From: Nanobdellota archaeon
GTDB taxonomy: Archaea > Nanobdellota > Nanobdellia > Pacearchaeales > GW2011-AR1
NCBI GenBank assembly: GCA_021799535.1
Contig: JAJZAH010000002.1
Coordinates: forward strand, 16,950 to 80,949
DNA length: 64,000 bases
Direction: 5' to 3'
Shown: positions 26,866 through 30,690 of the stretch, one piece after another
How positions within the stretch are numbered: position 1 is the first letter of the stretch
How the letters are laid out: each line of letters opens with the position of its first letter
Made by a program: the position numbers and the translations under genes
The notes under the pieces: generated by a model
Database searches by the model: none
What the model was told of the DNA's origin: nothing
Seen by the model: the letters and a program-made list of their open reading frames with translations, nothing else

Positions 26866-27153
26866 CTAAAAGTCGCTCCCGCCAAAGGGATAAGAATCTA
26901 TGCTTCCCCATTCAAGAAGGTAACTGCAGTTGGGACATTGCATAGGCGGAGGCTCTTGAATTTTGTCAGTCAGACTTTTTCCATGCTTATGGTTGTTTAT
27001 CATTTTCTCTAACCATGGGATTGAATATTCCTGTATGTAATTGTTAGTATACTTGTGCAGATCCTGGTGGCAGTTGCTGCATTCAATCAATGCCCCGCCC
27101 ATATCATCACCTAAGACTGTAATGAAAGCTCTATTAGAGTTTTTCTCTCTCAT
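26866..27153 (-). CDS. Zinc-ribbon-like small protein (95 aa)
   Basis: CSNC ... CPNC pair. GGGGGT SD-like sequence about 9 nt upstream of the ATG. Overlaps the upstream ORF by 20 nt. Confidence 0.5.
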   Translation of the reverse strand: MREKNSNRAFITVLGDDMGGALIECSNCHQDLHKYTNNYIQEYSIPWLEKMINNHKHGKSLTDKIQEPPPMQCPNCSYLLEWGSIDSYPFGGSDF

Positions 27154-27523
27154 TTTGGTTAACCCCCTTTGAATTGGTTTTTATATAAAACGGACAGGTA
27201 AGATGATCCTCTTCTTTGCATGGATGATAGTCTGTGTTTTGGTTATATTCCCCATACTGAAAATTCTGAAGCATGCATTTGTATTCTCCGAACGGCGAGT
27301 AAAGCATATCGTCGCATAAAAATTCAGAATAGTCGCATGATGAGTCGCCATTACTTTTGGGAAATTCTTTCTGACTTCTTGAGTAAACTCTTATTTTGTT
27401 TGCCAATTCATTAAGATCGTCCGTGAGTTCATTCTCAAGTTCTCTTTCTTTCATAAGAGATAAAAGACTTGTATTATTCATAGTTTTTACACGACAAAAT
27501 TTGTCATTAATATTGGAAGTCAT
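27134..27523 (-). CDS. Acidic Cys-rich small protein (start uncertain: 27523 or 27481)
   Basis: Six Cys in the C-terminal 70 aa (SSCDYSEFLCDD...YKC...HPCKEEDHLTCPFY). GGTG lies 6-9 nt upstream of the ATG at 27523. Coupled to the radical SAM gene. Confidence 0.45.
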   Translation of the reverse strand: MTSNINDKFCRVKTMNNTSLLSLMKERELENELTDDLNELANKIRVYSRSQKEFPKSNGDSSCDYSEFLCDDMLYSPFGEYKCMLQNFQYGEYNQNTDYHPCKEEDHLTCPFYIKTNSKGVNQNEREKL

Positions 27524-28172
27524 TATGCACCACAGAGTCGCTTTCAATAAAATAAAGATCGCGGGAATAGCTGTCGAGCGTTCTGTCAAACATGACTTTT
27601 GGATGTGAAAAATCGAAATATCCCACAAATTTATCTTTCTCTAATGAGCAAGCTGGGAATAGTTCCCTGAACATGAAAATGTCTACTTTATTTTCGTAAA
27701 TTGTTACAAATTCCTTTATTTTTTCTATACTATCTATTGCACCTTTTATGAGTATTGTTTGCATTCTTATCTTTCCGACTTTTGGTCTGTAAAAATTTAA
27801 GGTTTCATCAAGCTCATTTTGGAGTTTGCTCCTGTAAAAGAAGTTGTTTATGCTTGAATTCCAATGCACCCTTGAGAGGTTAAGCTCGTCTATCCCTGAG
27901 ATTTCTTTTAAAAGGAACCCCTCAGTGTAAAGCTTCACATATTTACCACGAAATAAATTTATTATTTCTTGTATATCCTTATGGAGCAATGGGTCTCCAC
28001 CTCCAGTAATTTCAACTTCCTCGAAATCGTCGATTCCCGAAATCGCTTTTTCAAGCTTTGAAACGTCGATAAATTGCGGCTTCTTATAATCAATTTCTTT
28101 TTCTTTCATATAGCAGAATGTGCAGTTCGCGGGGCAGGCATCTCTTACAGGAATAAGGTATAACCTTTTCAT
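27507..28172 (-). CDS. Small stand-alone radical SAM enzyme (221 aa)
   Basis: CPANCTFC (Cx3Cx2C) at residues 13-20, checked codon by codon at 28113-28136. GGE-like EITGGGDPLL motif. No C-terminal SPASM/twitch Cys cluster. Confidence 0.85.
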   Translation of the reverse strand: MKRLYLIPVRDACPANCTFCYMKEKEIDYKKPQFIDVSKLEKAISGIDDFEEVEITGGGDPLLHKDIQEIINLFRGKYVKLYTEGFLLKEISGIDELNLSRVHWNSSINNFFYRSKLQNELDETLNFYRPKVGKIRMQTILIKGAIDSIEKIKEFVTIYENKVDIFMFRELFPACSLEKDKFVGYFDFSHPKVMFDRTLDSYSRDLYFIESDSVVHNDFQY

Positions 28173-28993
28173 CTTCTTTTTCCGCTCCCAAATGACCTTC
28201 TTGTTGCTTCCTTCATTTCCAAAAGGTCATCAAGACTCATTTCCGGGAAATTCTTTTCAGTGTATCCTTCTATCGCCCCTATTATATCTGAAAGCTCCAA
28301 GAGGCTCATTATTTTTATCCCCTGATTCAGCGAGTCTTTGAATTCCAAAAGCTCTTCGTAGATCTTTTCAGCGCTTCCAAACTCTTCATGGGGGATGTCT
28401 TTTTTGTGGTAACCTTTTTGTTTTAAGCTCAGCACATAGCTCAGCCGGGGTTCAGCGATTCCCGTCCCGTAAATCCAATGATAAGTTTTGTAAGACCTGT
28501 GCCCATAGCTTCCAAGTTCTATTTTTTCATTCTTTGAGATTATATCCCTGCCCGAAAGCGTTCCGATAATCTCTGTTTGAAGATATTTTGAAAAGAATTC
28601 ATTTGATGTTTCAATTAGCTGTTTCTCCTTGTTGTAACTTTCGAATTTTTCCGCTTTTCCGAGGTAATCTATCAGCTCTACTTTGAAGAATGATCTTTTA
28701 TGGATTTCATCAACCACTTTTTCATCTCTATAACATGGGGTCGCGCAGCAGTACTTTCCATTGCTCAATCTTCCCTCAAGAATCAATTCCAGAAATCCCT
28801 GTTCCCCCGAAGCGATATGGTTTCCGGTATAATTATTATCAAGAAAGCACCTGAATCTCCTGACCTCTTTTGGTGCTGTCGCACTGTCAGACTCCTCCGA
28901 AACTATCCAAGGGACTTCAATGTATCTGAATCCTTTTGAATCATAGAATTCAATGGCTTGGGCAATCTTAGGGTAATCTATCCCTATTTCCAT
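28169..28993 (-). CDS. Minimal class II aminoacyl-tRNA-synthetase-like core fused to a MazG/HisE-like NTP pyrophosphohydrolase module
   Basis: GFRYIEVPWI (motif 1-like), ATPCYRDE (motif 2-like) and YGTGIAEPRL (motif 3-like) fall within about 190 aa, with no anticodon-binding domain. C-terminal EELLEF...LELSDIIGAIEGY resembles the EExxE/ExxD all-alpha NTP-PPase signature. The domain calls are tentative. Confidence 0.55.
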   Translation of the reverse strand: MEIGIDYPKIAQAIEFYDSKGFRYIEVPWIVSEESDSATAPKEVRRFRCFLDNNYTGNHIASGEQGFLELILEGRLSNGKYCCATPCYRDEKVVDEIHKRSFFKVELIDYLGKAEKFESYNKEKQLIETSNEFFSKYLQTEIIGTLSGRDIISKNEKIELGSYGHRSYKTYHWIYGTGIAEPRLSYVLSLKQKGYHKKDIPHEEFGSAEKIYEELLEFKDSLNQGIKIMSLLELSDIIGAIEGYTEKNFPEMSLDDLLEMKEATRRSFGSGKRR

Positions 28994-29097: not shown

Positions 29098-29937
29098 ATG
29101 CTTGATGGCCAGACCATGCAAAAAATAGAGAAGTTCGTTTCCGTTGAACCAAGAAGTATAAATGAAATCTCTGAATATATCCAAAAGAACTGGAGGACTG
29201 TTGACAGATATTTAAAAGAGATGGAGGAAGAGTATGGGAACATAATGACTAAGACGTTCAGGGGAGGGACACGCGGGGCCCTTAAGGTAGCATACATACT
29301 CAATCCTGAAAGAGCAAGCTCGACTAAACTCCAGGAAGAGCTTGAAAATGAAATCTTAAGGCAAAAAAGAAAAGAGGAGTTCTCTGCCTTTGACATATTC
29401 CAGCATGTGCCTGAAAAAAACAAAGTTGCAATTGTCGAGGATGAAATTTCTGAAAAAGGCACAAACTTGAAAGAGTTAATTCAGATATTGAATTCTACTA
29501 AAAAAGAGCTCAAGTTATTTTCTGGGAATCTATCATGGATAAATTTAAAGAAAGGAGATATTGATTTGTTCAATACCCTCGAAGAACTGGTTAAAAGAGG
29601 TGTGAGGGTCAAGGTTCTTTGCCGGGTTGATCTTTCGGGAATTGAAAATATCAAAAAAGTGTTATCGTTGAATTATAAATATGGAAATGAACTCATTGAG
29701 ATAAGGCACCGGGAGCATCCCATAAGAGCATTTGTTGTTGATAATAGCTCAATAAGATTAAAGGAGATACGCGAGCCTACCGGCAAGATAAAAGAACTCG
29801 ACAGGAAGATTTTTATTTTTTACACCATAAAAGACAAGGAATGGACAGAGTGGCTTTCGAAAATATTCATAAAGCTCTTCAATACCTCAGTTGGCGCCGA
29901 AAAAAGACTTGCGGAACTTGAAAAAATCGTGAAATAG
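29098..29937 (+). CDS. TrmB-like regulator (N-terminal wHTH plus TrmB_C/PLD-like C-terminal domain)
   Basis: N-terminal EPRSINEISEYIQKNWRTVDRYLKEM helix-turn-helix. C-terminal RGVRVKVLCRVD...IRAFVVDNSSIRLKE parallels the C-terminal domains of the two clear TrmB paralogs in this window. Confidence 0.5.
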   Translation: MLDGQTMQKIEKFVSVEPRSINEISEYIQKNWRTVDRYLKEMEEEYGNIMTKTFRGGTRGALKVAYILNPERASSTKLQEELENEILRQKRKEEFSAFDIFQHVPEKNKVAIVEDEISEKGTNLKELIQILNSTKKELKLFSGNLSWINLKKGDIDLFNTLEELVKRGVRVKVLCRVDLSGIENIKKVLSLNYKYGNELIEIRHREHPIRAFVVDNSSIRLKEIREPTGKIKELDRKIFIFYTIKDKEWTEWLSKIFIKLFNTSVGAEKRLAELEKIVK

Positions 29938-30099: not shown

Positions 30100-30690
30100 A
30101 TGAAAGTGCTTGCTGTCTCGGATATACACGGTGACTTGGGTCTTGTTAAACGGGTTGAAAAGATGATTGAAAAAGAAAATGTGGATCTTGTTATTCTGGC
30201 CGGGGATCAAACTTGGTTTGAACAGGTGAAAAAAGGGCTTGTCGGACCGCTTACAAAGAAACCTGCACTCATAATCCCGAGCAATCACGAAACTGAGGAG
30301 ACTGTGAGGATTTGGGAAGAGATGTACCCCAATCTTAAAAGCATTCATAAAAAAAATTTTGCTTTTGGGGATGTTGGATTTTTTGGATCTGGAACAGTTG
30401 ACTGGGGATTCGAAGAGAATTCGCAAAAGGTTTTTAACGAGCTGAAGAGCGCTCATGAGGGGATCAAAAAACTCAGGAAAAAAGTTATGATAACGCATTG
30501 TCCTCCTGAAGGAAGCGCGATAGAGCTTATGGGTTTTCCCGGTTCATATGGCATCGCAAAGGCGATTGAGAAGTTTTCCCCTAACTTTTTGATCTGCGGG
30601 CATATCCATGAGGGCGGAGGACTCATAGAAAGGATAAAGAATACCCAAGTCATAAATGTGGCAAGAAGCCCGACGATATTTGAAATTTGA
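30100..30690 (+). CDS. Calcineurin-like metallophosphoesterase (YfcE/MJ0936-like)
   Basis: Motifs SDIHGD, AGDQ, SNHE and GHIHEG. Confidence 0.8.
   Translation: MKVLAVSDIHGDLGLVKRVEKMIEKENVDLVILAGDQTWFEQVKKGLVGPLTKKPALIIPSNHETEETVRIWEEMYPNLKSIHKKNFAFGDVGFFGSGTVDWGFEENSQKVFNELKSAHEGIKKLRKKVMITHCPPEGSAIELMGFPGSYGIAKAIEKFSPNFLICGHIHEGGGLIERIKNTQVINVARSPTIFEI

Follow-up and report, generated by a model that had tools for sequence, protein, structure and literature searches.

What does a class II aminoacyl-tRNA synthetase (aaRS) core do when it has no tRNA-binding arm and is instead joined to a domain resembling nucleotide pyrophosphohydrolases? This question is raised by a gene in a 64,000-nucleotide stretch of contig JAJZAH010000002.1 from a Nanobdellota archaeon (GCA_021799535.1), referred to here as the window. 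An earlier note, made from the sequence alone, proposed that positions 28169 to 28993 encode an unusually small class II aaRS-like core fused to an all-alpha NTP pyrophosphohydrolase module, an arrangement its author did not recognize, with a degenerate HisZ-HisE-like fusion as an alternative. Profile searches, structure prediction, and comparison of related loci support both halves of the main proposal, identify the core as specifically seryl-tRNA synthetase (SerRS)-like, do not support the HisZ-HisE alternative, and show that the fusion is one form of a cassette found in thousands of sequences, mostly as two adjacent genes.

Results

The open reading frame (28169..28993, minus strand) begins with ATG, ends with TGA, and encodes 274 amino acids. 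An identical protein is on record on 5 contigs of up to 171 kb, where it is named "hypothetical protein." The PHROGs collection splits the sequence into two families, phrog_4806 (residues 3 to 192, E = 7e-42) and phrog_6408 (residues 193 to 273, E = 2e-30), the latter of "unknown function." Searches of Pfam, NCBIfam, and PDB with the single sequence gave only subthreshold hits, the only synthetase matches in the curated families being Pfam tRNA-synt_2 (E = 0.004, 16.7 bits against a cutoff of 25) and an NCBIfam AsnRS model (12.5 bits against a cutoff of 414), with no hit to tRNA-synt_2b.

Profiles built from relatives were more informative. For residues 1 to 190 (28424..28993, minus strand), a profile of 87 relatives matched many SerRS structures in PDB at E = 8e-7 to 1e-3 (7.7e-7 at the top). 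An AlphaFold2 model (pLDDT 95.8, pTM 0.90) showed the mixed alpha/antiparallel-beta layout by DSSP, and a Foldseek search matched it to SerRS, PylRS, and SepRS catalytic domains (E = 7e-9 to SerRS and PylRS, probability 1.00). No HisRS or HisZ appeared among PDB profile hits at E ≤ 1 or among the 50 Foldseek matches examined.

Residues known from Escherichia coli SerRS (EcSerRS) to contact the seryl-adenylate have equivalents throughout this core, and these are invariant or nearly so in 258 to 261 relatives. Motif 1 (GFRYIEVPWI, residues 21 to 30; 28904..28933, minus strand) carries P28 in 248 of 258 relatives and W29 in 249 of 258. The segment ASGEQGF (residues 61 to 67; 28793..28813, minus strand) is the SerRS-specific serine-binding "TxE" motif rather than part of motif 2, a refinement of the earlier reading; it aligns to EcSerRS T237-A-E239, which contact the seryl moiety (10.1101/586255), and S62 and E64 are present in 258 of 258 relatives. 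Motif 2 (TPCYRDE...FFKVELI; 28670..28744, minus strand) overlaps ATPCYRDE (residues 84 to 91) and FFKVELIDY (residues 101 to 109), with R89, F102, and E106 corresponding to EcSerRS R268, F287, and E291; R268 and E291 contact the seryl moiety, F287 stacks on adenine, and all three positions are present in 259 of 259 relatives. The motif 2 loop is 12 residues against 18 in EcSerRS and is net acidic, with a mean of 3.5 D/E and 1.1 K/R.

Because hmmalign could not carry the EcSerRS alignment through motif 3, the remaining positions were aligned by motif and are inferences. The segment ELGSYGHR (28496..28519, minus strand) matches EcSerRS E355-I-S-S358, with E159 present in 261 of 261 relatives and S162 in 259 of 261. 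A Mg2+ ligand role for E159 rests on SaSerRS Glu349, named as a ligand in 10.1101/586255, and on the assumption that this residue is equivalent to EcSerRS E355. Motif 3 (YGTGIAEPRLSYVL, residues 175 to 188; 28430..28471, minus strand) contains G176-T-G178 and matches the EcSerRS sequence N-G-S391-G-L-A-V-G-R397, in which S391 contacts the seryl moiety; T177 is present in 260 of 261 relatives and R183, the motif 3 arginine, in 261 of 261.

Compared with the bacterial-type SerRS catalytic domain, such as that of E. coli (PDB 6r1m) or Aquifex (2dq3), the core is about 190 rather than about 330 amino acids. It starts only 20 residues before motif 1, has no hit to the N-terminal coiled-coil tRNA-binding arm (Seryl_tRNA_N, PF02403), and lacks the C-terminal tail. 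It is also not the housekeeping enzyme, as a canonical SerRS lies 2 to 3 kb away in two of the related loci compared (numbered with the prefix L), L009 and L113, and the L113 copy carries the arm.

Assignment of residues 191 to 274 (28172..28423, minus strand) was less secure. This module comprises a conserved extended GYH..IP.G..G segment followed by three predicted helices (pLDDT 94.7), and neither Pfam nor NCBIfam returned any hit for it. A family profile matched the phosphoribosyl-ATP pyrophosphatase HisE (2a7w and 1yvw) at E = 0.003 to 0.007 and the MazG protein SSO3215 at 0.068. The top Foldseek matches were HisE (1yvw and 2a7w) and MazG proteins (1vmg, 3cra, and 7yh5) at TM 0.50 to 0.59 and a root mean square deviation of 1.6 to 2.6 Å, but with E values of only 2 to 5, and a relative in BFVD is annotated as MazG-like. 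The module also carries an acidic signature on consecutive predicted helices (residues 208 to 224 and 227 to 248). A first motif, K210-x-x-E213-E214-x-x-E217-x-x-D220 (28334..28366, minus strand), which includes EELLEFKD (residues 213 to 220), and a second, E233-L-S-D236 (28286..28297, minus strand), within LLELSDIIGAIEGY (residues 231 to 244), were invariant in 49 aligned modules (in the second, the E and D), while the serine varies as S/A/T. The K, EE, E, and E..D positions align to HisE 2a7w. An extra invariant Asp (EExxExxD) and a C-terminal invariant Arg distinguish the module from HisE and small MazG proteins. The peptide DDLLEMKE lies farther along, at residues 255 to 262.

In 97 of 103 related loci, core and module lie on one strand: 21 are fused, 61 are adjacent in either order, and 15 are within 0.2 to 2 kb. 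Both fusion orders exist. The family comprises about 2,100 clusters at 50% identity, and the core is present in 276 cultured phage genomes, including phAPEC8 and phi92, where gp196 is next to gp197, and the pair also occurs in giant-virus MAGs, DPANN archaea, and CPR bacteria. Labels are inconsistent, with many phage records calling the core "histidyl tRNA synthetase" and others "seryl-tRNA synthetase" or hypothetical. A homology search with the module alone returned only stand-alone proteins of 80 to 149 amino acids. In three loci (L069, L071, and L082) the module is fused to an H-D-H...H domain that has no Pfam, NCBIfam, or PDB match, and cores from Caulobacter phages carry an RNA_pol_A_CTD domain. 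No PADLOC defense-system hit was obtained for the core or the module.

In the window, the fused gene overlaps by ATGA with a gene for a small radical SAM protein (27507..28172, minus strand; 221 amino acids, CPANCTFC, PF04055 E = 3e-9). This narrow family of 21 clusters is directly adjacent to the fused gene in L006, L008, L010, L013, L112, L113, and L115 but is absent from all phage loci and from half of the cellular loci, consistent with a lineage-specific accessory in DPANN/CPR. Its specific family was not resolved, as NCBIfam, PADLOC (pVip E = 2e-7, N-terminal region only), and a PDB profile search (Tes, QueE, and TYW1) gave generic matches only; a 322-amino-acid viral radical SAM protein was also generic. 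Two small open reading frames downstream of the radical SAM gene (106 and 95 amino acids) are conserved only in the closest relatives and were rejected as partners. A divergently transcribed gene (29098..29937, plus strand; 279 amino acids) with weak HTH and PLD-like Pfam signals has homologs next to the cassette in L006, L008, L009, L013, and L112 and 3 kb away in L005, and is a possible regulator or partner in DPANN.

No third gene was conserved across lineages. Clustering of neighbors over 100 loci found none, and in a Pfam census of 148 flanking genes from 76 dereplicated loci the top families occurred in at most 4 of the 148. Neighbors of nucleotide-metabolism type include RNR and NrdD/NrdG genes in phi92, the nrdC region in Acj61, a dCMP-deaminase-like gene within 8 kb in 9 loci, AAA_28 kinase-like genes abutting the cassette or in its operon in 4 loci, a CYTH gene in the L112 operon, and nearby NUDIX, Metallophos, ThyA, and DHFR genes. 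The cassette is also inside or beside tRNA arrays in at least 10 viral loci, as in L101, where tRNA-Val is 17 nt downstream; however, tRNA genes occurred within 8 kb in only 27 of 103 loci, many of them related. A YqeY (tRNA-binding-type) gene follows the cassette in phi92 but was adjacent in only 1 of 100 other loci.

Discussion

The reading we favor, which as a whole is about as likely as not, is that this gene encodes a tRNA-independent, seryl-adenylate-forming enzyme with an NTP- or PPi-handling partner. In this view the core is a SerRS-derived adenylation domain that has lost its tRNA-binding arm and C-terminal tail but keeps a complete ATP and L-serine site, and catalyzes formation of seryl-AMP and PPi from serine and ATP. 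Serine activation is a fairly strong inference from the conserved residues. That the HisE/MazG-like module, with its intact Mg2+/triphosphate-ligand-type cluster, binds and probably cleaves at the alpha-beta bond a nucleoside triphosphate or another pyrophosphate-bearing ligand is supported to a moderate degree. The two parts would work as one complex, as follows from fusions in both orders, near-obligate adjacency, and the confident two-domain model. The module would supply or position a nucleotide, and the core would transfer activated serine to it or use it as second substrate, with the radical SAM enzyme making the substrate or processing the product in DPANN/CPR. A nucleotide rather than tRNA as acceptor is only weakly supported; it rests on the missing arm, the short acidic motif 2 loop, the acidity of both domains (median pI 5.1 and 5.7), and the neighborhoods described above, and no acceptor has been identified. 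We found no biochemical data for any member and no publication describing the cassette; a study of Mom (PMC13219725) concerns tRNA-dependent DNA modification by a GNAT enzyme and is unrelated.

The most serious competitor, possible although less likely, is a tRNA-directed enzyme, either a trans-acting minimal seryl-tRNA synthetase or an enzyme directed to tRNA 3' ends, that charges or repairs particular tRNAs such as those of phage arrays, with tRNA binding supplied by the module or other proteins. The complete SerRS-type active site, the tRNA arrays, YqeY in phi92, the RNA_pol_A_CTD fusions, and a distribution resembling that of translation-related genes in jumbo phages and giant viruses would all fit, and the armless mitochondrial SerRS2-alpha of protostomes, which depends on SLIMP, provides a precedent (PMC10817482). 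However, SLIMP is a SerRS paralog that retains the arm and supplies tRNA binding, while the partner here is a domain with an NTP-pyrophosphatase-like fold. The motif 2 loop, which is expected to contact the acceptor end in class II synthetases, is shortened and acidic, the association with tRNA genes and YqeY is sparse, and an invariant acidic cluster of the Mg2+/triphosphate type has no obvious role in tRNA charging. A dedicated Ap4N synthase, in which the gamma-phosphate of an NTP held by the module attacks enzyme-bound seryl-AMP and serine acts catalytically, would explain an aaRS core with an intact amino acid site and no acceptor domain, and Ap4A appears to be a side product of class II synthetases including SerRS. 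This reading is unlikely, being purely inferential, without an evident precedent for a MazG-fold domain, and not explaining the radical SAM partner or the H-D-H fusions.

Similarly doubtful is a regulated NTP pyrophosphohydrolase in which the core is a noncatalytic sensor of serine and/or ATP, much as HisZ probably serves HisG. The nucleotide-type neighborhoods would fit, but invariance of the motif 2 and motif 3 arginines and of the residues aligned to the SerRS Mg2+-site segment in about 260 members is the pattern of a working adenylation site, and HisZ proteins appear to have lost such residues. A system like EpmA/EpmB, in which a radical SAM enzyme makes an unusual amino acid that a class II paralog ligates to a lysine of a target protein, is suggested by a class II paralog without an anticodon domain next to a radical SAM gene in 8 loci and by weak NCBIfam hits to KamA/EpmB (E = 6e-5 to 1e-4). 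It is very unlikely, because those hits cover only the CxxxCxxC region (residues 5 to 69) and are weaker than generic MoaA-type hits, 221 amino acids is too short for an aminomutase with a PLP domain, the core is SerRS-like rather than LysRS-like, the radical SAM gene is missing from many loci, and the MazG-like partner would be unexplained. Least likely are the HisZ-HisE fusion suggested in the earlier note and a SerRS-like amino acid:carrier-protein ligase with the module as carrier, despite the HisE matches of the module, the "histidyl" phage labels, and the small helical proteins that seem to accompany such ligases. In addition to the lack of HisRS or HisZ among PDB profile hits at E ≤ 1 or among the 50 Foldseek matches examined, the serine-binding residues are conserved, the cassette is mostly viral, and none of the neighbor genes annotated, in the window's own contig or among the 148 flanking genes, is hisG or another his gene. 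The variable serine of ELSD cannot be a phosphopantetheine site, and the module profile hits HisE rather than ACP.

Reuse of a synthetase core without a tRNA-binding domain is already known from HisZ, AsnA, EpmA (PoxA/GenX), and the amino acid:carrier-protein ligases, which work with a dedicated partner or acceptor. Those paralogs appear to be about 275 to 330 amino acids, and none is evidently paired with a MazG/HisE-fold protein. A near-obligate partnership between a predicted adenylating enzyme and an NTP-pyrophosphatase-like protein is not among the known uses of synthetase paralogs. At its most speculative, and tentatively, the cassette could be a previously unrecognized enzyme system in which a natural, near-"urzyme"-sized core (~185 amino acids) still makes seryl-adenylate and, with its partner, joins serine to a nucleotide or builds a serine-dependent nucleotide product, with radical SAM or oxygenase-like enzymes as lineage-specific tailoring steps. 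This would be a tRNA-independent amino acid/nucleotide chemistry shared by jumbo phages, giant viruses, and ultrasmall DPANN and CPR cells.

The core would apparently be the smallest natural class II synthetase-type core with a complete amino acid and ATP site, which bears directly on ideas about how small an ancestral synthetase could be. The family is large and includes genes of well-used E. coli phages, yet we found no functional study of it. Its presence in viruses of bacteria and, judging by giant-virus MAG contigs, of eukaryotes, as well as in host-dependent ultrasmall cells, points to a function on a universal molecule (nucleotides or tRNA) that matters for parasitic lifestyles.

The fused open reading frame and its genomic setting

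The open reading frame at positions 28169-28993 of the window (minus strand) starts with ATG and encodes 274 aa, and all peptides that the earlier note had read from its translation were found at the residues it gave them. The identical protein is on record on 5 contigs of up to 171 kb, where it is named only "hypothetical protein." The surrounding genes are archaeal, including a TFIIS/RPB9-type zinc ribbon, TrmB, IleRS, and D-Tyr-tRNA deacylase type 2, and the closest relatives come from DPANN-type MAGs (Woesearchaeota, Nanoarchaeota, and Pacearchaeota). The window also holds one tRNA-Lys(CUU).

A predicted SerRS-like catalytic core without tRNA-binding parts

When searched alone, the sequence gave only sub-threshold hits: Pfam tRNA-synt_2 at E = 0.004, an NCBIfam AsnRS model at E = 0.052, and SerRS in the PDB at E = 0.3. 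In contrast, a profile built from 87 relatives hit about twenty SerRS structures at E = 7.7e-7 to 1e-3, followed more weakly by AspRS and PylRS, with no HisRS. An AlphaFold2 model built on the same alignment was very confident (pLDDT 95.8, pTM 0.90) and matched SerRS, PylRS, and SepRS catalytic domains at a Foldseek E value of 7e-9 with probability 1.00. Thus, residues 1-190 are a class II catalytic core whose nearest relatives are SerRS.

HMMER aligned the family to Escherichia coli SerRS (EcSerRS) from motif 1 through motif 2, while the remainder was aligned by motif, with EISS placed against ELGS and NGSGLAVGR against YGTGIAEPR. According to Cain et al. (10.1101/586255), the seryl moiety of Ser-SA contacts T237, E239 (the TxE motif), R268, E291, and S391 in EcSerRS, and adenine stacks on F287; these positions were checked in the E. 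coli sequence. By the HMMER alignment, T237, E239, R268, F287, and E291 correspond to S62, E64, R89, F102, and E106 of the archaeal protein. By motif logic alone, S391 corresponds to T177, E355/S358 of the EISS segment to E159/S162, and the motif 3 arginine R397 to R183. The roles given to E355/S358 as a Mg2+ site and to the motif 3 arginine are inferred, in part from a statement on a Mg2+-coordinating Glu in 10.1101/586255. Each of these target residues is kept in at least 258 of 258 to 261 family members, and P28, the motif 1 proline, is kept in 248 of 258.

What is missing is everything SerRS uses for tRNA. The N-terminal coiled-coil arm is gone, and the motif 2 loop is 12 residues long against 18, with on average 3.5 acidic and 1.1 basic residues. 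The core therefore looks like a working Ser + ATP adenylation site without a tRNA-binding apparatus. It is not the housekeeping enzyme; canonical full-length SerRS genes lie 1-3 kb from the fused gene in two of the DPANN genome loci we retrieved, L009 (5810-7105) and L113 (6153-7478).

A C-terminal module resembling HisE and MazG

Residues 191-274 align with 48 relatives at 53% mean column identity. Invariant residues are Y195, K210, E213, E214, E217, D220, E233, D236, and R273, giving the pattern K..EE..E..D followed by E..D. A profile of this alignment hit the phosphoribosyl-ATP pyrophosphatases (HisE) 2a7w and 1yvw at E = 0.003 to 0.007 and the Sulfolobus MazG 1vmg at E = 0.068, with the K, EE, E, and E..D positions aligned; NEMO hits in the same list are short coiled-coil matches. 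Modeled alone (pLDDT 94.7), the module has three predicted helices after an extended N-terminal segment. Its best structural matches are HisE, MazG, and HisIE proteins at TM 0.50-0.59 and rmsd 1.6-2.6 Å, although their E values of about 2-5 are not significant on their own for such a short helical query. Taken together, the motif, the profile, and the fold ranking support membership of the all-alpha NTP pyrophosphohydrolase superfamily, even though thresholds of curated models are not reached.

The fusion is one form of a conserved cassette

An exhaustive search found 2,097 representatives at 50% identity with E <= 0.001, of two kinds: fused proteins of about 260-290 aa and cores of about 180-200 aa. 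The module also occurs N-terminal to the core in four proteins (P0152, P0180, P0217, and P0238). Among 103 loci retrieved from genomes and viral contigs, a six-frame HMM search found core and module fused in that order in 21, as separate adjacent genes with the module before the core in 39 and the core before the module in 22, and on the same strand 0.2-2 kb apart in 15. Only 6 loci had no module within 8 kb. Many of the separate pairs overlap by a few bases.

Both parts are catalogued in PHROGs, as phrog_4806 ("histidyl tRNA synthetase") and phrog_6408 ("unknown function"). A tblastn search found the core in 276 cultured phage genomes, including phi92, phAPEC8, Acj61 and other Acinetobacter T4-like phages, Caulobacter phiCbK-like phages, Microcystis MaMV-DC, and Vibrio 2.275.O, under contradictory labels that include both histidyl- and seryl-tRNA synthetase. 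In phi92, the annotators had already noted a "MazG-type fold" for gp197, directly upstream of gp196. The cassette is also present in IMG/VR contigs labeled as giant-virus MAGs, in jumbo-phage contigs of 200-600 kb, and in CPR bacteria, one case being a 798-kb Saccharibacteria contig.

Lineage-specific neighbors

No third gene is general. The best neighbor cluster occurred in 9 of 100 loci, and a Pfam census of 148 immediately flanking genes gave at most 4 members for any family (DNA pol III alpha, Radical_SAM, DNA methylases, AAA_28, NUDIX, and Metallophos). However, partners restricted to particular lineages do exist. In the window, the gene at 27507-28172 (minus strand) encodes a small, 221-aa radical SAM protein (CPANCTFC; PF04055, E = 3e-9) whose ATG overlaps the TGA of the fused gene as ATGA. 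It belongs to a narrow family of 21 clusters, all at least 57% identical, and is adjacent to the fused gene in 7 other DPANN/CPR loci: L006, L008, and L013, L010 (a WWE3 bacterium, where it is on the other side), and L112, L113, and L115. The last three came from look-ups seeded with the radical SAM protein itself, in which 3 of 4 loci had the fused gene immediately upstream. Its specific chemistry could not be assigned; its best matches are generic (MoaA, pVip, Tes, QueE, and TYW1). Two small Cys-rich/zinc-ribbon open reading frames (106 aa and 95 aa) follow it on the same strand at 26866-27454, but they are conserved only in the closest relatives (L006, partly L005) and are probably unrelated to the cassette.

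On the other side of the fused gene, a divergently transcribed gene at 29098-29937 (plus strand) encodes a 279-aa protein with weak HTH (ArsR-type) and PLD-like/DrmC-like signals. It recurs in six other DPANN loci, next to the cassette in L006, L008, L009, L013, and L112 and 3 kb away in L005, and may be a regulator. A calcineurin-like metallophosphoesterase of 196 aa (30100-30690, plus strand) has homologues near the cassette in L005, L006, and L112. AAA_28 (NadR ribosylnicotinamide-kinase-like) genes abut the cassette in L013, L017, and L020, and one lies in the same operon in L112. This Pacearchaeota operon (L112:1662-4720) reads AAA_28, a 73-aa open reading frame, a 112-aa open reading frame, a CyaB-like CYTH gene (56.8 bits, cut-off 57.95), the fused gene, and then the radical SAM gene. 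In L115, a NUDIX/NrtR-type regulator directly precedes the fused gene.

A distinct 322-aa radical SAM protein lies about 1 kb downstream in one viral clade. In three jumbo-phage loci (L069:7467-8294, L071:7299-8246, and L082:8567-9436), an N-terminal domain of ~190-230 aa with a conserved H-D-H...H pattern, cupin- or oxygenase-like by eye, is fused to the module; it has no Pfam, NCBIfam, or PDB match and might be an aerobic counterpart of the radical SAM partner. In Caulobacter phages of the CcrPW type (L078/L079:8236-9090; L117:3746-4600), the core carries an N-terminal RNA polymerase alpha C-terminal-domain-like (helix-hairpin-helix) domain (RNA_pol_A_CTD; PF03118, E = 6e-7). About 18 tandem paralogous small open reading frames (60-150 aa) with an MKMINCNGWAPRN...FYYRL...DEDDYFNEDD pattern and acidic tails lie 3-8 kb upstream of the fused cassette in one viral clade (L060:42-4955, plus strand; also L052, L054, L063, L066, and L067).

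Possible function

The protein combines what appears to be a complete SerRS-type adenylation site lacking tRNA-binding parts with a complete MazG/HisE-type acidic cluster, and the two are genetically linked almost without exception among the loci examined. Although no biochemical data were found, the inference that the core makes seryl-AMP is fairly strong, because the residues known to hold Ser-AMP are invariant or nearly so. There is moderate support for the module binding a Mg-triphosphate or pyrophosphate ligand and probably cleaving it. Evidence that the two act on a common substrate, probably a nucleotide, is weak. This possibility rests on the loss or acidic character of the tRNA-contacting features, on neighborhoods rich in nucleotide enzymes (RNR and NrdD/NrdG genes in phi92, the nrdC region in Acj61, a dCMP-deaminase-like gene, AAA_28, CYTH, NUDIX, Metallophos, and ThyA/DHFR), and on the argument that hosts range over all three domains, so that the target must be universal.

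The main alternative, which we consider unlikely but not negligible, is a tRNA-directed function. It is supported by the cassette lying inside or beside tRNA arrays in at least 10 viral loci, by the YqeY-domain gene (gp195, labeled "tRNA amidotransferase"; L110:5586-6020) that directly follows the cassette in phi92, and by the alpha-CTD fusion in Caulobacter phages. tRNA arrays near the cassette in the viral contigs L031, L047, and L083 include tRNAs with a CUA anticodon called as "tRNA-Pyl" by ARAGORN, which may be amber suppressors of stop-codon-recoded phages. Both the tRNA-array and the nucleotide-gene associations are counts on partly related loci rather than statistics. An Ap4N-synthase mechanism or a HisZ-like sensor role is possible but less likely still, while carrier-protein and EpmA/EpmB readings, and the HisZ-HisE fusion that the earlier note had offered as an alternative, fail specific tests, which for HisZ-HisE cover the profile and structural hits and the neighbor genes annotated.

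The family is already catalogued but not characterized, and full-text literature searches found no study of it. It most likely works like a synthetase paralogue re-used outside translation, as HisZ, AsnA, EpmA, and aa:CP ligases are. It differs from these in its size (about 185 aa), in a fully retained SerRS-type site, and in a near-obligate MazG/HisE-fold partner.
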